In this document: one piece after another, positions 54,824 through 64,000 of the stretch
How positions within the stretch are numbered: position 1 is the first letter of the stretch
Layout: each line of letters opens with the position of its first letter
Assembly (NCBI GenBank): GCA_964399775.1
Contig: CAYNSH010000007.1
Span: 788-64,787, forward strand
Source: an uncultured Verrucomicrobiota bacterium
Lineage (GTDB): Bacteria > Verrucomicrobiota > Kiritimatiellia > CAIQIC01 > Lenti-01
Length of the DNA stretch: 64,000 nt
Direction of reading: 5' to 3'
Notes under the pieces: model-generated
Database searches by the model: none
Seen by the model: only the letters and a program-made list of their open reading frames with translations
What the model was told of the DNA's origin: nothing
Translations under genes and position numbers: made by a program

Positions 54824-55996
54824 TCAGTGAGCGGCAATCCAGGGAATGGCGACAAAGGTCCCGATGCTGCTGCCGATATTGGCAAACACCACCACGAGCA
54901 GGATCCGCACCACCGGATTCAGAAAGAACCCCTTGACGCTCTCCATCGCCTCGGGAAGCTGTTCAAAGTCGCCCACCGATGGGGGCCGGGCCCACGCCTG
55001 AACCAATCCCGCCACCCAACCCGCCGCAATCGTGGGATTCAGGCTCGTGATCGGCGCCGCCACGAAAGCCGACAAGGTCGCCAGCGGGTGGGCCAGCGCC
55101 AGCGCCGCGCCCAGGGCGGAAAGGACTCCGTTCACGCCGACCCAGATCAGAATCGAGTCCACCCCGCGCTGCGTGCCGCCCTGCATGAACCCCCAGGCAA
55201 TCAACCCCACCACCACAGCCGGAATCAACCACGGCCAGATCCGTGACCATCGTGACGGCGGCGGCAGGCTCTCCAGTTCCGCCAACGAATGCTCCGCGCG
55301 GATCGACTTCAGCATTCCCAACACATGCCCGGCCCCCACCACGGCCACGATCCGCTCGCCTGGCGCCATCCGCAGCTTCTGGGCCAGGTAGACATCGCGT
55401 TCGTCGATCAGCCGCTTCTTGATTTCCGGAAAGGCCTTGCCCATCTCGCCCATCAGCGCTTCCAACTGATCCTGCTGTTTCAGCGCCTCGATGTCCACGC
55501 CCCCGATCTCCTCCGACGAGAACAAGGCGCCCAGCATGGTGCCAAACAGCTTCAGCCGCTGCCAGAAGCCCAGATGCCGCCAGACCCGCTTGAGCGTGAT
55601 GTCGATGCGCCGGTCAATCAACTCCAGTCGCGCGCCGGTTTCCTTGGCGCAGGCCACGCCCGCCATCATCTCCGCCCCCGGCTCGACCTCCAGTTGCTTG
55701 CCCAGGCGACGGTAAAACGACTGCATCGCCAGTTGCGCCAGCAGGAAGGTGGCCTTGCCCTCCTTGACCACCCGGAACAGGTTGGTCTCCTGCCAAGCCG
55801 TCTTCTTCACCATCCCCTGATATCGGGGCTCGCAGAGTTCGATGGCAATTGTATCCGGACGGACCGCCGTCACCGTATCACGCACATCCTGCACGCTCTG
55901 GGCGGACACATGGGCGGTGCCCACGATGTAAAGGATTTTGCCCTCCAACGCCACCCGGGTGGCACTGGAGGGCAACGCGAGGGCCTCTTCCGGCAT
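54824..55996 (-). CDS. TraB/GumN-family protein
   Basis: ILYIVGTAHVSAQSVQDV, ELCEPR, C-terminal membrane segments. Confidence 0.75.
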   Translation of the reverse strand: MPEEALALPSSATRVALEGKILYIVGTAHVSAQSVQDVRDTVTAVRPDTIAIELCEPRYQGMVKKTAWQETNLFRVVKEGKATFLLAQLAMQSFYRRLGKQLEVEPGAEMMAGVACAKETGARLELIDRRIDITLKRVWRHLGFWQRLKLFGTMLGALFSSEEIGGVDIEALKQQDQLEALMGEMGKAFPEIKKRLIDERDVYLAQKLRMAPGERIVAVVGAGHVLGMLKSIRAEHSLAELESLPPPSRWSRIWPWLIPAVVVGLIAWGFMQGGTQRGVDSILIWVGVNGVLSALGAALALAHPLATLSAFVAAPITSLNPTIAAGWVAGLVQAWARPPSVGDFEQLPEAMESVKGFFLNPVVRILLVVVFANIGSSIGTFVAIPWIAAH

Positions 55997-56009: not shown

Positions 56010-57269
56010 CTAGCGACGGATGAAGATATCGGTGCGCCGGTTGCGCTGCATGTTTTCTTCGGTGTCGTTCGGTGCGACCGGCCGGTCAAATCCATATCCA
56101 ACCGCCGTCACGTTCGCCGGGTTGATCCCGCTGTTCTTCACCAGATAGTCCGCCACCGCCCGCGCCCGGCGTTCGCTGAGGCGCTGGTTGTACTCTCGCG
56201 TCGAACGGCGTCGGCGGTCCGCGTGCCCTTCCACCGTTACCTGGACGCTGGGATCGCGCCGCAGCACCCGCACCACGGGCTCCAGATCCTGGTAATACTG
56301 CGGCCGAATGAAATACTTGTCGTAGTCGAACTCGATCAACAACGTGAACTTTTGAACGTCATCGGCCGGGTCCAGGGGATCCGTGCCGTCTTCGATGACT
56401 TCATGCCCATCGCTGACGCCGCCGCCATCCGTATCCGGATTCAGCGGATCGGTGCCGTAGACCAACACTTCGGCCCCGTCGGAAAGCCCGTCGCCATCCG
56501 TGTCGGGATTCAACGGATCGGTGCGATAAATGAAGACCTCATCGCCGTCGGACAATCCATCGCCATCCGTGTCGGGGTTGTATGGATCCGTGCCCAACAG
56601 CCGCTCGTCGCGGTCAAACAGCCCGTCCCCATCGCTGTCGATGTCTCCCGGGCCCACGTCCACCAGAAACTCCGGGGGAATCTGGCGCTGGGCTCCGAAA
56701 CGATAGCTCGCGCCAATCTCGATCAGGCCGATCGTTTCGCTGGAAGGATTCTGCAGGCCAACGATGGCATCGGCGCGCACGGCCCACGAGTCGTTGAAGT
56801 GGTAAAAAACGCCCGCGCCGCCGAAAATGCCCAACTGGACCTGGCCATGATGCAGCTTGTCGCCGTAGAACGTGAGGGCCGGCCCGGCCCGCAGGAAGGG
56901 GTCGATTCGACGGTTCCGGACATTGCGCAGGTGCAGCAGCGCATCCGCGCTCAAGCGAAGCGCCCACGTACTGCCGTCAAGGGGCTCCACATTGGTGTTC
57001 AGTTTGTCGGCATCGCGGTCCGAGAGCGAAGGCATCAGGTTCAACCCGCCTTCCAGCGCCCACCACGAATTAAGGCTGTAGCCCATCTTGCCGAAAAGCC
57101 CCAGGCCGGGTTCGATTTCCCAGTCCCCTTCCACCTGGTACCAGTTCAACCCCACCGTCCCGTACCACGGGGCGCGCTTGAACAAGTCGTCATCCGCGGC
57201 CATGGCGCCCGCCGCCACAAACGTCAACGCCAACATCGCCGCCACCAAGCATTTCACTGTTCGTGTCAT
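56010..57269 (-). CDS. OmpA-family outer-membrane protein with thrombospondin type-3 (TSP3) calcium-binding repeats
   Basis: Signal peptide, beta-barrel N-terminus, repeated DxDGDGLSDGxE...TDPLNPDTDGDG units, C-terminal OmpA domain (VTVEGHAD...ERRA). Confidence 0.88.
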   Translation of the reverse strand: MTRTVKCLVAAMLALTFVAAGAMAADDDLFKRAPWYGTVGLNWYQVEGDWEIEPGLGLFGKMGYSLNSWWALEGGLNLMPSLSDRDADKLNTNVEPLDGSTWALRLSADALLHLRNVRNRRIDPFLRAGPALTFYGDKLHHGQVQLGIFGGAGVFYHFNDSWAVRADAIVGLQNPSSETIGLIEIGASYRFGAQRQIPPEFLVDVGPGDIDSDGDGLFDRDERLLGTDPYNPDTDGDGLSDGDEVFIYRTDPLNPDTDGDGLSDGAEVLVYGTDPLNPDTDGGGVSDGHEVIEDGTDPLDPADDVQKFTLLIEFDYDKYFIRPQYYQDLEPVVRVLRRDPSVQVTVEGHADRRRRSTREYNQRLSERRARAVADYLVKNSGINPANVTAVGYGFDRPVAPNDTEENMQRNRRTDIFIRR

Positions 57270-57434: not shown

Positions 57435-58154
57435 TCACCACGGCAGCCAGATGGCCCCCCCCATGGCCAGGCCCATGATTTCCACATCGGACAGGGCGCG
57501 CGCGTAGATCCGCACGTCGTCCAGCCCCACTTGGGCGAAGGAATCCATGGGATGCGCCAGATGATCGCGGGCGCCAATGAACAGGTCGGCTCCGGGATTG
57601 TGCTGCATGGGATGGTCATAGACCCCTGACGCCAAGAGAATCCCATCCACATACACGGTCATGGATGGCTGCGAAAACGTTGCCGCAACATGATGCCAGC
57701 GGCCCGGCTCCAAGGCAGCGCTCGAATCAAGGATTCTCTGCCAACGCCCATTCCCAAGCACGAAACGCGCTTTGCCCGTTGGGGTGATCTGCAACGAATA
57801 GCCCTCGTTGTCGTGATGCCCCAGATTCCGCTTGAAGATCAGGGCCACCACGCCCTGTGGCCATTCGTCCAGCCTCACCCAGGCCGATAACGTCAAGTCC
57901 TCGGGCATGAGGGATGGAGTGGACAGCGTTCGGATAAATGCCGAACGACCGTCGAATTGCAGGCCGTTGCCATGCACCCCGGGGATCGGGCGCGTTCCAA
58001 TCAGTTGCCCCTCGTTCCCGCATGGACTCGAATCCCCCGCCACTCGTCCGGAGTCCAGATCAAAGGCGTAATGCAGCACAAGGCGGTTTGGCGGAACGTC
58101 GGCAACCGCTGCCGCCACCCAAGCCAGTCCCGCCAAGAGAATCCGCCCGCTCAT
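57435..58154 (-). CDS. Secreted LamG/concanavalin-A-like lectin-fold domain protein
   Basis: Signal peptide MSGRILLAGLAWVAAAVA. LamG-like core. Confidence 0.65.
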   Translation of the reverse strand: MSGRILLAGLAWVAAAVADVPPNRLVLHYAFDLDSGRVAGDSSPCGNEGQLIGTRPIPGVHGNGLQFDGRSAFIRTLSTPSLMPEDLTLSAWVRLDEWPQGVVALIFKRNLGHHDNEGYSLQITPTGKARFVLGNGRWQRILDSSAALEPGRWHHVAATFSQPSMTVYVDGILLASGVYDHPMQHNPGADLFIGARDHLAHPMDSFAQVGLDDVRIYARALSDVEIMGLAMGGAIWLPW

Positions 58155-58157
58155 CCC

Positions 58158-59672
58158 TTATCTCGCCATCCGGTTGGCCCGGAGGATGTAGATCGGATAC
58201 CGAAGCATCAGGGTATTGGGCCTGGTGGGATGGGGCGGCAATGTCCCGGCGATGGAATAGTTTTCCATGATCGCCTGGATGGTCGGATCGGCCTGATCGA
58301 TGGTCGACGCGCCCAAGATGACATAATCATAGCGCTGTTCGCGGTAGGGCACATTCAAAAAATCGGGCTTGTTTTGATAGGTCCACCGTCCGTCCAGCCA
58401 GCGGCAATTTTCATTGCCGTGATGCCCGCCTTCGGGATGGCCGAACGAACGGGTGATATAAGGGAAATGATAGAGAATCGTGGGACCGCGCCGAAACACA
58501 TCGGCGATCTGGGCGTACGTGGCGCGATCGTTGCGGTCGATGTAGCGACGAGCCCCCTCCTGCCAGGCGGGAATCAGAAACGCCACCGCCGGAATCAGGA
58601 TGGCCAGAGCTTGAAAACGGCGGGCCGCCGCGGGCTCGGAAAAGGCACGCCCCGCCGCCTGGACTCCCTTCAGCCCGCAAATGATCAGGCCGGCAAAAGC
58701 AATGACGGCATGGTTGTTGCCGCTGCCGAATTTCGGCTGCGCCAGGCTGGCCACCAGCATTCCGGCGGCCGCCATGACGTGCTCCGGCGTCAAGACTCCC
58801 CGCCACGCCTCGGCAAGCCCTTTGGCCGAGACCAGGGGCCAGAGGGTGAACAGCAGCAGGATGCCGGCCTGTCCCAGGAATTGCGCGGACCACACCTCGT
58901 TCAACAGGCGCGACATCTCCCACAGGGGGCCCTGGTTTTGGCTCACGACAATGTCATAGAACAGCCCGCCGGATTGGAGTTGCAGGAAGGCCAGGCCGCC
59001 GCCCGTGACCACGAGGGCGGGAACCACAAACCAAAGCGCTTTGCGAGGTGCCCGAAGCAGGGCGAAACATCCGGCCGCAGCCACATACGCCAGGCCGGTT
59101 TGCTTGGTCAGCGCACCCAGCGAAAGCCACCATGCCGCCCAGACCAGTGAGGATCGTTCCAGGCGCCGCAAACAATAGAAGCCCGCCATGACCAGGGCGA
59201 AATGGAGCGCATCCACATGAATCATGAACAACCAAAAGCCGGTCAACAGGCTGACCATGACCAGCAGCAGGAGGCTGAAAGTCGTGAGCAGGAGATCCCG
59301 GGAGGTCTCCAGCCATACCCACCGGGCGGCGAAGAAGAAAAAGACGAGGGACGCCAGCAGCGAAACGAGTTGCGGAGAGAGAAATCCGGGGCCGAAGGCC
59401 CGCCAAACCAGACTGCAGACCCACCAATAGAATGGCGTATAGGTGATGACGTTGAACTCGAAGGAAAGCGGGGCATAGAGTGGATCGCCGTCGTACAGCC
59501 GGGCGATCTGCGCCAGGTGTTCGTATACGGACCGATCCAGGCCGAAAGACGCGTTCAGGTTGTTGACGATCAGTATCGCCAGGGGGAGGGCCAACAGTGT
59601 CAAAAGAATCAACGACCCCTTGGCCCAGGCATCGAGATCCCGCCACGCACTCCCTTGCCGGATGCGACTCAT
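58158..59672 (-). CDS. Polytopic GT-C-fold membrane glycosyltransferase candidate (ArnT/PMT/DUF2029-like)
   Basis: ~12 predicted TMs. Sits immediately downstream (1-nt gap) of a GtrB/ArnC-like GT2. Family assignment uncertain. Confidence 0.45.
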   Translation of the reverse strand: MSRIRQGSAWRDLDAWAKGSLILLTLLALPLAILIVNNLNASFGLDRSVYEHLAQIARLYDGDPLYAPLSFEFNVITYTPFYWWVCSLVWRAFGPGFLSPQLVSLLASLVFFFFAARWVWLETSRDLLLTTFSLLLLVMVSLLTGFWLFMIHVDALHFALVMAGFYCLRRLERSSLVWAAWWLSLGALTKQTGLAYVAAAGCFALLRAPRKALWFVVPALVVTGGGLAFLQLQSGGLFYDIVVSQNQGPLWEMSRLLNEVWSAQFLGQAGILLLFTLWPLVSAKGLAEAWRGVLTPEHVMAAAGMLVASLAQPKFGSGNNHAVIAFAGLIICGLKGVQAAGRAFSEPAAARRFQALAILIPAVAFLIPAWQEGARRYIDRNDRATYAQIADVFRRGPTILYHFPYITRSFGHPEGGHHGNENCRWLDGRWTYQNKPDFLNVPYREQRYDYVILGASTIDQADPTIQAIMENYSIAGTLPPHPTRPNTLMLRYPIYILRANRMAR

Positions 59673-59673
59673 C

Positions 59674-60639
59674 TCAGTCTCCTCCAAGAAATTCCCGGAT
59701 GACGTAGCGCGGGCGCCGGATGGACTCCCGGTGAATGCGCCCGACATAGATGCCCAGAATGCCCACGGTGAACAGAATGATGCCCCCTAGCAAAAGCGTC
59801 GTGGCGAGCTGAAGGTGGTCCCACGTGAGCCCCCCCCCCGAAGATCCCCACAGCGCCACGGCCAGCATGCCGATCATGAACAGAAAAGCCAACAGCCCTA
59901 CCGCCATGCCCATGAAGAGCGCCAGGTACAGCGGAAGGGTTGAAAACAGCGTGATTCCCCGCACAAATTCCTTATAGGGATTCAGGCTGCTCCATAGGGA
60001 ATACTTGGTTTCGCCGGCGAAACGCGCCTCGCGTTGATACCATATCTGGACCTGCGTAAACCCGACCCAGGACACCAGTCCCCGCAGAAACGGGTCGAAC
60101 TCCGGCATGTGCAGGATCTCGTTCAACGCCCGGCGGGAGATCAATTTGAAGTCTCCCGTGTTTTGCAGGATGGTGATATCCGCGACGCCATTGATGGCTC
60201 GATAGGCCTGGCGCGTCAGCCACATCTTGAGTGCATTTTCGCCCTGGCGGTCGGTCCGGGTGGTATGGACAATGTCGGCGCCCTCCCGCCACTTCTGGAC
60301 CAGTTGCGGAATCAGCTCGGGCGGATCCTGCAGATCCGTGTCCATGTAGATGACCGCATCGCCTTTCGCCTTTCCGAATCCAGCCAGGACGCAGGGGGCA
60401 TTCCCGAATCGACGAGACATGTTCAGGATCTTGACGGCCGGATTTTTCTCCCGGGCCGCCAGCAGGATTTCCAGCGAGGCATCGGTTGACGCATCGTTGA
60501 CAAAAATCAATTCGTAGCGCAGGCCCAGGCCAGCAAACACGGCTTCCTGCCGGCGGATCATTTCCGGCAGAACCTCCGCCTCGTTGCGGAACGACAACAC
60601 CACGGATATCAGCGCATCTTGCTCCCGGCCGGTTTCCAT
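59674..60639 (-). CDS. GT2 polyprenol-phosphate glycosyltransferase (GtrB/ArnC-like) with C-terminal TM pair
   Basis: ISVVLSFRNEAE..., IFVNDASTD, YMDTDLQD (DxD), two C-terminal TMs. Start at METGREQ (M50) chosen to avoid overlap with the divergent gene. Confidence 0.8.
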   Translation of the reverse strand: METGREQDALISVVLSFRNEAEVLPEMIRRQEAVFAGLGLRYELIFVNDASTDASLEILLAAREKNPAVKILNMSRRFGNAPCVLAGFGKAKGDAVIYMDTDLQDPPELIPQLVQKWREGADIVHTTRTDRQGENALKMWLTRQAYRAINGVADITILQNTGDFKLISRRALNEILHMPEFDPFLRGLVSWVGFTQVQIWYQREARFAGETKYSLWSSLNPYKEFVRGITLFSTLPLYLALFMGMAVGLLAFLFMIGMLAVALWGSSGGGLTWDHLQLATTLLLGGIILFTVGILGIYVGRIHRESIRRPRYVIREFLGGD

Positions 60640-60766
60640 GCTGGGGACGATAGCGCCCCCGCCCATTCCGACACAATCTAAAACGCCGGGTTCAGGAGAC
60701 CATCCAAAACCCTCCCCCGGATAGGAACGGGCTTGTGTTTTTTGCCCCATTGCGCACTCTGGACAC

Positions 60767-61483
60767 GTGAATTCAACGCCCGCCAAGGATCCGTCGCCCC
60801 TGTTTGACCACTACGGCCAGACCTATGACGAGGCCATGCGCAAGTCCATTGGCTTCATGGGCCAGTCGCACGAGTATTTTACGGCCTACAAAGCCGACGG
60901 CATTGTCGAACTCCTGCGCCAGCACGTGGGTCCGCCCCCGCAGCTCCAGGTCCTGGACGTGGGCTGCGGTATTGGCAAGACCGACCGGTTCCTGGCCGAG
61001 CGGCTGGGCGGGCTTACGGGAGTCGATGTCTCCACGGAAAGCATCCTTCGCGCCCGCAGCGACAATCCCACGGTTCGATACGAATCCTATGATGGCCGGC
61101 ACCTGCCGTTTCAGGATGGCGCCTTTGATGCCGGGTTCTGTATCTGCGTCCTTCATCATGTGCCGCCGGACGAGCGGGTGCCCCTGTTGGTCGAAGTCTC
61201 CCGTGTTCTCAAACCCGGGGGATTGCTGATGATCTTCGAACACAATCCGTGGAATCCCCTGACCCGTCTTTCCGTGGCCCGCTGCGATTTTGATCGCGAC
61301 GCCCAGCTCTTGACCCGTCGGGAATCCGTCAGACTTCTCATCCAGGCCGGGCTTTCCCTCGTAGTACGGCGCTACATTCTGTTCTCGCCTTTCCGCATTC
61401 CGGGCTTCAACCGATTGGAACGGCGCATGCCATCGATTCCCCTCGGCGCCCAATACGTCGTGGCCGGGAGAAAAACGCCCTAG
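60767..61483 (+). CDS. Class I SAM-dependent methyltransferase
   Basis: VLDVGCGIGKT (motif I), FDAGFCICVLHHV. Confidence 0.82.
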   Translation: MNSTPAKDPSPLFDHYGQTYDEAMRKSIGFMGQSHEYFTAYKADGIVELLRQHVGPPPQLQVLDVGCGIGKTDRFLAERLGGLTGVDVSTESILRARSDNPTVRYESYDGRHLPFQDGAFDAGFCICVLHHVPPDERVPLLVEVSRVLKPGGLLMIFEHNPWNPLTRLSVARCDFDRDAQLLTRRESVRLLIQAGLSLVVRRYILFSPFRIPGFNRLERRMPSIPLGAQYVVAGRKTP

Positions 61484-61513
61484 CGGACGCGTGGTCCCCA
61501 AGCCCGCCGGCCC

Positions 61514-63460
61514 TTACGGCATCGGCTGCATCCGCAGGCTGCGCACCAACAGCACGCCTCCACCCGTGCGCTGGAACAGGACGCGATTGATCCCGGGGAC
61601 GAGTTCCACCTCATAAACCGTTTCGGAAAGTCGCCCCTCAGGAACGGTCCGGGACCCGGATTCTCCCACGCGTACAATGGAGGGGCCGCCCGAGGCCACC
61701 GCCACCATGTCCACCCGGGCTCGAAGAGTACGCTCCGTCACATTATGCACTTCGAGAACCGCCTCGTCCTCGAGTACCCGGTAATCATTGAAATCGCCAT
61801 GCTGCCAGGGCTTGAACAATCGCCATCCTCGGTCGAAGAACCAGGCCAGGGATTGGCCCGCCGCACGCACACGGTCAGCCTTGTCCTCGCGCGTGTCATA
61901 GAACACCTCCGGGACCAGTCGGCTGTGCTCGGTGTAGAATTCCTCCATCGGCGCATATCCGCTGTCGCGCAATTTCACCCCCGCCGTGTTCGGGATTTCG
62001 GCGCGCCGGCGGAAATAGGTTTCGGGCCAGGTCCACAACCCCAGGCGTTTTTCCTGGTTCCGGGCCAATCGCAAAAACGCCTGGGCGCCGTTGCCTTCAA
62101 ACACCTCCCGCGTAACCCCGCGCCAATTGTAGCGCATGTATTCGTCATAGGTGTCATCGGGCACCGTAAACCCAACAAACACGTGGGTCGGGGCATACAA
62201 CGCCATTTCGTTCCACGGCTCCAGCCAGCGGTCGACAATGACCACGTCGCCCGGCGCGAGATGTTCATCCAGCCATTCCCGGATCAGCACATAGGGTGTG
62301 GCCTTGCCTTCCAGCCGGACAATCTGGGCGACCGGCCAGGAGAGCACCGCCGCAAGAACCAGGGCCATCGCTCCATCCAAACGTACCCGCCATGCGGGCC
62401 ATGCCATTCCAAAAGCCCGATCCAGCGTCATCGCACACCAGATCACAAACGCCGGGGCGTTCACCGCAAAATAGGACAACTTTGCGGTGGCTCCGCCGAT
62501 AGCCAGAATATAGGCATAGCTGCCCAGCAGTCCACCCCCCACGATCCACGTGGTGGCCGCATAACGGGGATCGGCCGCCTGCCCGCGGCCACGACGCCAA
62601 ACGATCGCCGCCGCCACGGCCACCGCCGCCAGAATGCCGATGCCGATCCAATTCGCACCCGCCACGAAAAAGGGCAGAACGCGCGGGGCAATCCAGGCGA
62701 AATCCGAACCAATATGCCCATGCGGAGCGGTCTGCACCCGCTGCATCTCTAAAATGGCTCGATAGATCCAGCGCGACATCCCGAGGGCCAACGCCAGAAC
62801 CACCCCACTCATGGCGAGGGCATGACGTCGCCGAAGCGCGCCATCCACCCCCCACAGTCCTGACACCACGATCACCAGCCCCGTGGTGGCCGCCACCACC
62901 CAGGCCGACATGTGCCCCATGCAGGCCGCCAGCGCCCAAAGCGACCACTCGGCATAGGCGCGCCAACCCAACGGCTCGCCGCTTCTCAAGCGTGCCGCGA
63001 AATCGGCGCCACGCAACATCATCCCCGCCCCCATCGCCATCGTCACGACGTAGTAGTACGCCTCCCGCGAGTGGTAGACATGAAAGGGCAACACCGCCAG
63101 CCAGACTCCCGCCAGCAGCCCCGCCACGGCTCCGCGCCGTCGCATGAGCCATCCGGCGCATCCCGCCACCGTGAGCCATCCCAACAGGGCAAACGGCTCC
63201 CGGACCATGCCTTCATCCACGGTGCGCCAGGGCTGCAGATTGGACCAGACCACCGGAATGGAGTCTGTTAACGGGATCTGGTTGAGCCAAGGCGGATGTG
63301 TCCACAGTTGCGCCAGGGTCTTGGCCCCCCGGCCGTAGTTCAACATGTTGAGCTCATCCGCGCGTGTCGGACAGCGCCCCAGGGCCATAAAGCGCGGCAA
63401 GGCGGCGACCACCAGGATGGCGGTCCATGCGGCTCCACTCCGTATCGTCGACCGGTTCAT
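61514..63460 (-). CDS. GT39/ArnT-like GT-C membrane glycosyltransferase with large C-terminal soluble domain
   Basis: First loop R.ADE..MLNY (DE motif), ~11 TMs, ~250-aa C-terminal domain. Confidence 0.5.
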   Translation of the reverse strand: MNRSTIRSGAAWTAILVVAALPRFMALGRCPTRADELNMLNYGRGAKTLAQLWTHPPWLNQIPLTDSIPVVWSNLQPWRTVDEGMVREPFALLGWLTVAGCAGWLMRRRGAVAGLLAGVWLAVLPFHVYHSREAYYYVVTMAMGAGMMLRGADFAARLRSGEPLGWRAYAEWSLWALAACMGHMSAWVVAATTGLVIVVSGLWGVDGALRRRHALAMSGVVLALALGMSRWIYRAILEMQRVQTAPHGHIGSDFAWIAPRVLPFFVAGANWIGIGILAAVAVAAAIVWRRGRGQAADPRYAATTWIVGGGLLGSYAYILAIGGATAKLSYFAVNAPAFVIWCAMTLDRAFGMAWPAWRVRLDGAMALVLAAVLSWPVAQIVRLEGKATPYVLIREWLDEHLAPGDVVIVDRWLEPWNEMALYAPTHVFVGFTVPDDTYDEYMRYNWRGVTREVFEGNGAQAFLRLARNQEKRLGLWTWPETYFRRRAEIPNTAGVKLRDSGYAPMEEFYTEHSRLVPEVFYDTREDKADRVRAAGQSLAWFFDRGWRLFKPWQHGDFNDYRVLEDEAVLEVHNVTERTLRARVDMVAVASGGPSIVRVGESGSRTVPEGRLSETVYEVELVPGINRVLFQRTGGGVLLVRSLRMQPMP

Positions 63461-63469
63461 GTGGTGGTT

Positions 63470-64000
63470 CTAGGAGAGCTCACCCGCTCCCCGACGGGTG
63501 TCTTTCGTATCCCCCCGTACCAAATACAACGGACGGTGCTTGCCCTCTTCGAAGATTCGGCTGACGTACTGTCCCAGCATGCCGATGCCGATCAGTTGCA
63601 CACCGCCCAGGAACACCATGACTGCAATGATCGATGCCCAGCCGCGTTCCAGGGTATCCGGACGGACGATCGCCTGCACGATGACATATAGAACCCAGAA
63701 AACGGCAACCGCGCAGACCGCCAGGCCCAATACCGCGATCCAGCGCAGCGGCGACGCCGAAAATGACGTGATCGCATCGAACGCCAGGCGCGCGCTCTTC
63801 CACACCGGATACTTCGTCTCGCCCGCGTAGCGCGCCGCGCGGTCGTATTCCACCGCCGCCTGCCGATACCCCACCCAGCACGTCAGCCCCCGCATGAACC
63901 GGTGCAACTCGCGCATCTCGTTCAATGCCTCCACCACGCAACGATCCACCAGCCGGAAATCCCCCGCATCCATCGGCACATCCACCTTCGCCAGCCGCCG
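63470..64000 (-). CDS. GT2 polyprenol-phosphate glycosyltransferase (GtrB/ArnC-like), 3'-partial: C-terminal part only
   Basis: ...AGETKYPVWK...LGIGMLGQYVSRIFEE... parallels the C-terminus of the 59674..60639 GT2. ORF runs off the window end. Confidence 0.7.
   Translation of the reverse strand, partial: RRLAKVDVPMDAGDFRLVDRCVVEALNEMRELHRFMRGLTCWVGYRQAAVEYDRAARYAGETKYPVWKSARLAFDAITSFSASPLRWIAVLGLAVCAVAVFWVLYVIVQAIVRPDTLERGWASIIAVMVFLGGVQLIGIGMLGQYVSRIFEEGKHRPLYLVRGDTKDTRRGAGELS

Follow-up and report, generated by a model that had tools for sequence, protein, structure and literature searches.

Near the end of a 64-kb window from an uncultured Kiritimatiellia genome (64% GC) lie two gene pairs, each composed of a GT2 glycosyltransferase gene followed by a gene for a large polytopic membrane protein; the window is the whole stretch of DNA that was analysed, and all positions are numbered along it. 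This locus raises the question of whether the two pairs, named here GT2a-polyA (module A) and GT2b-polyB (module B), encode routes of lipid-linked glycosylation, how they are related to each other and what they modify. A sequence-only reading of the region had described them as duplicated modules of a polyprenol-phosphate-sugar synthase and a GT-C transferase, accompanied by a LamG protein and a methyltransferase. Our analysis indicates that the modules are probably independent glycosylation routes of the Gtr/Arn/Pgf kind, each working in two steps by way of a lipid-phosphate-sugar, with envelope glycans or glycolipids as the favoured acceptors. The genes concerned are the following:

59674-60639, minus strand: GT2a, a GtrB-type GT2 of 321 residues, putative donor synthase of module A
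58158-59672, minus strand: polyA, a polytopic protein of 504 residues, predicted GT-C of a small unannotated family
63470 to beyond 64000, minus strand: GT2b, a fragment of the C-terminal 176 codons of a gene cut by the window end, putative synthase of module B
61514-63460, minus strand: polyB, a polytopic protein of 648 residues, predicted GT-C of an unannotated family
60767-61483, plus strand: a soluble class I S-adenosylmethionine (SAM)-dependent methyltransferase of 238 residues, convergent with polyB and divergent from GT2a
57435-58154, minus strand: the LamG gene, coding for an exported concanavalin-A-like protein of 239 residues (PF13385, 7e-29)

All six open reading frames (ORFs) were recovered from the ORF list where they had been placed before, and each displays the excess of G+C at third over second codon positions that is typical of real genes. 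The junctions are as tight as had been described, with 9 nt between GT2b and polyB, 1 nt between GT2a and polyA, and 3 nt between polyA and the LamG gene. The window differs from the public 180-kb contig k141_290327 (ENA ERZ27252308) by one mismatch in 12,487 overlapping bases, and the locus on this contig, L001, completes GT2b to a protein of 321 residues.

Donor synthases and the fold of the polytopic proteins

Judging from their sequences, GT2a and GT2b are full-length relatives of the polyprenyl-phosphate glucosyltransferase GtrB. In a search of PDB sequences, GtrB sll0501 of Synechocystis (PDB 5EKP) was aligned with residues 11-319 of GT2a (2.5e-66) and with residues 6-307 of the full GT2b taken from L001 (4e-86); it is followed by ArnC (1e-38 for GT2a, 6e-49 for GT2b) and then by the archaeal dolichol-phosphate mannose synthase (DPMS). 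With the GtrB/ArnC/DPMS enzymes, both proteins share the whole-length alignment, the GT-A domain (PF00535, 4e-27 in GT2a), a D-x-D-LQDPP motif of the DxD type (MDTDLQDPP in GT2a, MDADLQDPP in GT2b) and two C-terminal hydrophobic transmembrane (TM) helices, as in the GtrB family. The best NCBIfam model for both is PgfS and the second is ArnC (1e-68 and 2e-43 for GT2a, 1e-40 and 7e-19 for the GT2b fragment), but the equivalog cut-offs of these two models are not reached (232 and 148 bits vs 500 and 529), which sets GT2a and GT2b apart from the characterized enzymes.

In the public gene call, GT2a is 358 residues long and starts at 60750, 16 nt from the start of the divergent methyltransferase gene. 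The ATG at 60639 is the more likely start, since the GT2a orthologues have 313 residues and the alignment of the 321-residue version with GtrB starts at its residue 11; this start would leave a divergent intergenic region of 127 nt.

For polyA and polyB, sequence libraries are silent. No Pfam match below E 0.01 and no NCBIfam match was found for polyA, the PMT_2 family (PF13231) appearing only at E 0.47 with 10.9-11.1 bits, short of its gathering score of 26.1; for polyB, too, Pfam gave nothing below E 0.01 (PMT and PMT_2 not even at E 10, and no MIR) and NCBIfam nothing at all. Since neither has a Pfam match above threshold, they cannot be assigned to YfhO or to any other annotated transferase family. 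PDB sequence searches with both single sequences and family profiles returned chance-level matches only. The homologues, which come from Kiritimatiellia-type metagenome-assembled genomes (MAGs) labelled Opitutae, Verrucomicrobiota or Lentisphaerae, bear no Pfam domain and are called "hypothetical protein" where they are named at all. Since the sequence libraries show nothing, it is structure prediction and fold search alone that confirm, at the level of predicted models, that polyA and polyB are GT-C fold glycosyltransferases.

The AlphaFold2 model of polyA (predicted local distance difference test, pLDDT, 83; predicted template modelling score, pTM, 0.86) has as its first Foldseek match in the PDB the aminoarabinose transferase-type structure ArnT 5F15 (E 1.3e-6, TM-scores 0.57/0.54, 13% identity in the structural alignment). 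Ranks 1 to 35 are all GT-C enzymes, namely ArnT, AftA, AglB, STT3, ALG9/12, Pmt4, Emb, DPY19, PimE and ALG3/6. The predicted layout, a membrane domain followed by a C-terminal alpha/beta domain of about 105 residues, resembles ArnT in both size and architecture. The model of polyB (pLDDT 93, pTM 0.91) is likewise matched by GT-C enzymes at all ranks from 1 to 26, with AftD at the top, then STT3, ArnT, ALG9, Pmt4, DPY19, AglB, Emb and AftA; the best target-normalised TM-score, 0.60, is obtained with Pmt4. Its predicted domains are a membrane part (about residues 1-385), a periplasmic alpha/beta domain (about 390-535) and a beta-sandwich resembling a carbohydrate-binding module (CBM; about 538-646). 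After the GT-C enzymes, the sandwich matches CBM61, CBM29, CBM6 and CBM35.

The silence of Pfam, NCBIfam and the PDB sequences would also suit two transporters, or membrane proteins of the polymerase/ligase type, that stand beside GT2 genes by chance. We consider this extremely improbable. Both models match only GT-C folds at Foldseek probability 1.0, and transporters of the major facilitator superfamily come after the GT-C matches of polyA, at a probability of at most 0.2 and a TM-score of about 0.12, that is, as noise. Moreover, PMT and PMT_2 matches occur among family members, and the kept partnership with GtrB-type synthases suits a transferase. The Foldseek ranking of both models thus led us to reject the transporter reading.

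The two families differ in extent. For the polyA family, only about 21 clusters were found among 5.8 billion proteins, and 10 of 21 members weakly match PF13231 (best 3.4e-5). A profile search with polyB gave at least 188 cluster representatives at E < 1e-30 and 1,011 at E < 1e-3, nearly all of them, among the matches listed, full-length at 650-720 residues. Distant members of the polyB family do reach Pfam, with matches to PF02366 (PMT, 3.3e-10, as in the member P0282), PF13231 (1.2e-10) and the TMEM260-like family (PF11028, 3.5e-5); a search of PDB sequences with P0282 gave nothing usable. A broad polyB profile built from 83 sequences of 27% mean identity weakly matches yeast Pmt2 (E 0.05), with R132, the arginine of the SREAY motif, aligned on the arginine of LGRF in Pmt2. 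The label "GT39-like" given to polyB by the sequence-only reading therefore holds for the link to PF02366 and PF13231 through distant relatives, as well as to TMEM260, but not for polyB itself, which matches neither PMT, PMT_2 nor MIR. Indeed, the MIR beta-trefoil, PMT_4TMC and TPR domains are absent from polyB, and its extramembrane part is C-terminal, with the alpha/beta domain and the CBM-like sandwich in place of MIR. polyB is a member of a broad PMT/ArnT-like branch of GT-C, and not of GT39 by any defining feature tested.

Conservation points to candidate catalytic residues in both proteins. In the broad polyB alignment, R23 is invariant, D35 is conserved at 99% and R132 at 96%, and D35-E36 begin the first helix of the loop past TM1 in the model; R23, D35/E36 and R132 are thus the polyB candidates. 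Their arrangement, R23...D35-E36...R132, resembles the Arg / Asp-Glu / Arg pattern of PMTs. The polyA candidates are D46, conserved at 90% or more, and R47, Y50 and E51, which are invariant. In the predicted models, D35 of polyB and D46/E51 of polyA fall 7-12 residues past TM1. Judged by sequence position, this would be the place of the GT-C catalytic acid; in the GT136 founder, D31, E34 and Y35 just past TM1 are essential (PMC11127046).

A further conserved element of polyB is the periplasmic motif V-D-R-W-[LFY]-E-P-W-N-E-M (residues 409-419; window positions 62204-62236), situated about 30 residues past the last TM helix. It is near-invariant in close relatives, and D410, R411 and E418 are conserved at 87-92% in the broad alignment. 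The position of this motif recalls that of WWDYG, by which oligosaccharyltransferases bind their acceptor.

Relation of the two modules and their neighbours in relatives

To compare gene order, we used 76 loci from species-representative genomes, all of them MAGs, together with places from a metagenome index, and scanned all ORFs of the fetched loci with a profile of each component. Each pairing of a GT2 with a GT-C recurs among these relatives. GT2a-type genes adjoin polyA in six loci (L006, L007, L008, L014, L067 and L084). A GtrB-like GT2 of the GT2b type lies on the same strand, at most 8 kb upstream of the polyB orthologue, in 12 of the 15 loci with enough flank, and directly adjoins it in at least 5. 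In L010 (7684-9309), a membrane protein scoring only 54 bits on the polyA profile comes after a GT2a-type synthase; GT2a-type synthases thus appear to partner more than one GT-C family.

The modules had been described as duplicated, a reading under which a recent tandem duplication would have given two paralogous routes, working together with the LamG and methyltransferase genes as a single unit. Both pairs do have the same gene order and strand, and GT2a and GT2b are clear homologues. Their identity is nevertheless only 37% over 305 residues, as expected for homologous proteins but not for recent copies, and each of the two GT2 types is faithful to its own GT-C across loci. polyA and polyB, on the other hand, have no BLAST similarity and are unlike in length and domain content. 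Aligned by hhalign, their narrow profiles gave a probability of 1%, which rose to 55% (E 1e-4) only when the polyA profile was compared with the broadened polyB profile; a recent duplication of these two genes was rejected on these grounds. Furthermore, the modules are found apart in most relatives, as in MAG SABN01, where they occupy different contigs (L007 and L009), and their order varies, being GT2a-polyA-polyB in L006 and GT2b-polyB-GT2a-polyA in L014. Duplication is thus a very unlikely origin, and the region is better described as carrying two separate GT-C families, each paired with a GT2 subtype of its own. BLAST of the six proteins against all plausible window ORFs revealed no further paralogues; the remaining window ORFs of about 650 residues code for an ABC-F protein and a UvrD-like helicase.

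Module B, often with the methyltransferase, is a widespread Kiritimatiellia unit that usually stands directly upstream of two further genes. In the window these are:

56010-57269, minus strand: an OmpA-family gene, coding for a beta-barrel, four TSP3 repeats and an OmpA domain (PF13505, PF18884, PF00691)
54824-55996, minus strand: a TraB/PrgY/GumN-family gene (PF01963, 3e-34), given for context

The OmpA/TSP3 gene and then the TraB/GumN gene directly follow the polyB orthologue in 14 of 29 loci, and three further loci carry inserts ahead of them (GT2a-polyA in L014, a methyltransferase in L015 and LamG in L022); the OmpA-TraB pair is kept in L006, L009, L011-L014, L016, L017, L020-L023, L030, L035, L039, L040 and L042. 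The window keeps this frame from polyB to OmpA, with the methyltransferase, GT2a, polyA and LamG genes in between. Module A belongs to a rare family; in this genome its place, and that of the LamG gene, is between polyB and OmpA. On its own side, polyA is followed by an OmpA/TSP3 gene in L014 and by a gene for a TSP3 protein in L007. The polyB family thus has a conserved envelope-gene context, and these loci show it to be an almost constant part of the Kiritimatiellia envelope. Its most conserved neighbours, the OmpA/TSP3 and TraB genes, had not been mentioned in the earlier description; they are a candidate acceptor or functional partner.

The methyltransferase (PF13649, 2e-21; PF08241, 4e-21) had been described as sitting between the modules. 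Its position is as stated, but it is not a neutral spacer, since it tracks the polyB family and not polyA. In both L010 and L015 an orthologue follows polyB, placed and oriented as in the window, and class I methyltransferase genes abut or overlap polyB-family genes in L004, L025, L031, L072, L080 and L084 and on the contig of the relative P0017.

The LamG protein, whose hydrophobic N-terminus ends in AVA/DV, had been noted as an exported product encoded downstream of the first pair. It does lie 3 nt past polyA as an exported protein, but it is recurrent and optional rather than a fixed partner. Four loci have polyA and no LamG gene (L006, L007, L008 and L014), and L022, which has no polyA, carries between polyB and OmpA an orthologous LamG domain of 63% identity with two more LamG repeats. 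LamG matches occur in about 17 of the 76 loci (about 1 Mb in total). Since this density is similar to that of the window, with one LamG gene per 64 kb, only the position of LamG-domain genes within the clusters, seen in about 12 loci, argues for a link.

In eight relatives (L011, L012, L016, L017, L020, L023, L035 and L039), the space between GT2b and polyB is filled with apparent sugar-tailoring genes. They code for a B12-binding radical SAM enzyme of about 490 residues, an NAD-dependent epimerase/dehydratase and a GFO/IDH/MocA oxidoreductase, often with a LamG protein, sometimes LamG and TSP3 together. By analogy with the Arn system, these genes look like ones acting in donor-sugar tailoring. 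The P0017 contig adds transketolase subunits and a DegT/ArnB-like aminotransferase, the latter directly upstream of polyA. None of these tailoring genes occurs at the window locus. The tailoring genes of relatives suggest an unusual donor sugar, possibly C-methylated or aminated.

Proposed mechanism and candidate acceptors

The sequence-only reading had attributed to each pair a synthase of polyprenyl-phosphate sugars that hands over to a GT-C transferase. This logic is borne out by the end-to-end alignment of both GT2s with GtrB and then ArnC and by the predicted GT-C fold of both polytopic proteins. At the cytoplasmic face, GT2a and GT2b would each use a nucleotide sugar to load one sugar onto undecaprenyl phosphate, the presumed lipid carrier. 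The methyltransferase could act only before flipping, because it has neither a signal peptide nor a TM segment, and would most likely methylate the sugar at this stage. The lipid-linked sugar would then be flipped by a flippase encoded outside the cluster, and the cognate GT-C, polyA for GT2a and polyB for GT2b, would pass it to a periplasmic acceptor. Both proteins have an acidic residue where the first periplasmic loop starts (D46/E51 in polyA, D35 in polyB), and this residue may carry out catalysis.

An envelope glycan or glycolipid is the acceptor that we favour, with a likelihood somewhat short of even. For polyB, a polysaccharide or LPS-type (lipopolysaccharide) acceptor is preferred because the predicted C-terminal sandwich is similar to the CBMs found in Emb, AftD and GT136 enzymes; for polyA, a lipid A/core-like acceptor, because ArnT is the closest fold of the model. 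The sugar-tailoring genes of relatives also favour an envelope glycan. There is a precedent for a GT-C whose C-terminal CBM binds a polysaccharide acceptor (PMC11127046).

Several observations weigh against the two-module scheme and its glycan acceptors. The sugar, the lipid and the acceptor cannot be read from the sequence, and genes for sugar-nucleotide biosynthesis are missing from the window locus. No flippase gene of the GtrA, ArnE/F or MATE type was found in the cluster, as judged from the ORF list and L001. The CBM-like assignment of the polyB sandwich comes from weak Foldseek matches (E ~1e-3, target TM-scores 0.33-0.55). Finally, the place of polyB beside OmpA/TSP3, the recurrent exported LamG/TSP3 proteins and PgfS as the best NCBIfam model suit a protein acceptor at least as naturally.

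According to this alternative, one or both GT-Cs would carry out protein O-glycosylation of the PMT/Ppm1 or streptococcal PgfS/PgfM type, modifying the TSP3-repeat linker of OmpA and/or the LamG protein. In addition to the OmpA/TSP3 genes directly after polyB orthologues (14 of 29 loci, and three with inserts) and the OmpA/TSP3 and TSP3 genes after polyA in L014 and L007, LamG and LamG+TSP3 proteins are encoded inside many clusters. PgfS, which tops the NCBIfam models for both GT2s, is the synthase of a protein O-glycosylation system; the sequence bridges of polyB lead to PMT, PMT_2 and TMEM260-like families, all of protein O-mannosyltransferases; and Pmt4 gives polyB its best target-normalised TM-score. 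Yet MIR, TPR and any other known peptide-acceptor domain are absent from the window proteins, with a CBM-like module in polyB instead, and the OmpA linker is Asp/Gly-rich, with no Ser/Thr-rich disordered region. Moreover, about 40% of the polyB orthologue loci lack an OmpA neighbour, as do the distant subfamilies except for one locus, and the adjacency may mirror shared envelope housekeeping with no enzyme-substrate relation. We regard protein O-glycosylation as rather unlikely.

A more specific form of the protein hypothesis seems to us doubtful, and less probable still. In that case polyB, the GtrB-type synthase, the methyltransferase and the LamG/TSP3 proteins would form a Kiritimatiellia-wide system that glycosylates envelope proteins with calcium-binding TSP3 repeats. 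The downstream OmpA-family anchor would be the chief target and would receive a methylated sugar. A further modification of this target, specific to the lineage, would come from polyA, and the motif V-D-R-W-[LFY]-E-P-W-N-E would bind the acceptor. If true, bacterial protein glycosylation would gain a new class, one that relies on GT-C families without annotation.

Known systems, transcription units and further observations

The locus has counterparts in several known systems. With ArnC/ArnT (GT83), it shares the succession of synthase and GT-C, and polyA is about as long as ArnT and, in its model, likewise ends in a small periplasmic domain. polyA differs from ArnT/GT83 in scoring 10.9 bits on PF13231, below the cut-off of 26.1, and in its 13% identity; genes for ArnA, ArnB, ArnD and ArnE/F were not found in the window cluster or in its L001 extension. 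With GtrA/GtrB/GtrC and CsbB/GtcA/YfhO, the likeness lies in the partnership of a GtrB-type synthase with a periplasmic, polytopic transferase that modifies an already completed envelope polymer. Here, in contrast, there is no GtrA/GtcA flippase gene in the cluster: the GtrA family is absent from the Pfam annotation of L001 and of the other loci, and the genes abut, leaving no room for an extra ORF. Furthermore, this chromosomal locus has housekeeping genes on its flanks, not prophage or O-antigen genes.

The layout of polyB is the same overall as that of GT136 and of the mycobacterial Emb/AftD enzymes; the comparison with GT136 is one of layout and not of sequence, and AftD is the top Foldseek match. 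GT136, represented by ORF12 of Citrobacter youngae, is a GT-C of at least about 650 residues with a C-terminal beta-sandwich CBM and its catalytic Asp just past TM1 (PMC11127046). Its synthase is a polyprenyl-phosphoribose synthase and its flippase a MATE protein, whereas in the present cluster a GtrB-type GT2 serves as the synthase and a MATE gene is lacking. With streptococcal PgfS/PgfM, the likeness is that both GT2s score best on PgfS.

A lipid-phosphate-sugar synthase working with a periplasmic GT-C is a textbook mechanism, and no concept is changed by this locus. What is new is that two unannotated families, polyB widespread in Kiritimatiellia and polyA rare, may on the evidence of their models be called GT-C glycosyltransferases. 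A fold and a probable activity are thereby given to families that public sources call hypothetical, in a poorly studied lineage of the PVC (Planctomycetota-Verrucomicrobiota-Chlamydiota) group known mostly from MAGs; if characterised, they could become new CAZy GT-C families. The adjacent OmpA/TSP3 protein offers a specific acceptor candidate, to be set against LPS or another glycan. Literature searches on Kiritimatiellia glycosyltransferases and LPS found no paper addressing these genes, and those on surveys of GT-C families found only general GT-C papers.

Another feature concerns transcription of the locus:

61475-61490, minus strand: a terminator-like hairpin followed by a T-run, 24 nt past the polyB stop codon

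This hairpin, read from 61490 to 61475, is compatible with two separate units, GT2b-polyB and GT2a-polyA-LamG, and likely marks the end of the first. It is suggestive by its position alone, since a promoter and terminator scan of the region gave counts not above those of shuffled sequences (12 terminator-like sites vs 8.1 +/- 3.6).

A large protein search retrieved polyB at 100% identity but missed the exact polyA, its best match having 70% identity, although the gene is called in L001; this is probably a clustering or word-filter effect.

A second arrangement of polyB-like genes was observed in L004, on a 352-kb contig (JGI 3300015615). Two such genes are present there, with dTDP-sugar isomerase and epimerase genes between them. 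One, the polyB orthologue of 658 residues, overlaps its own methyltransferase gene by 4 nt and is followed downstream by a gene for a protein of 836 residues with no Pfam match. The other codes for 678 residues, weakly matches PMT_2 (E 0.002) and is adjoined by a methyltransferase and a GT2.

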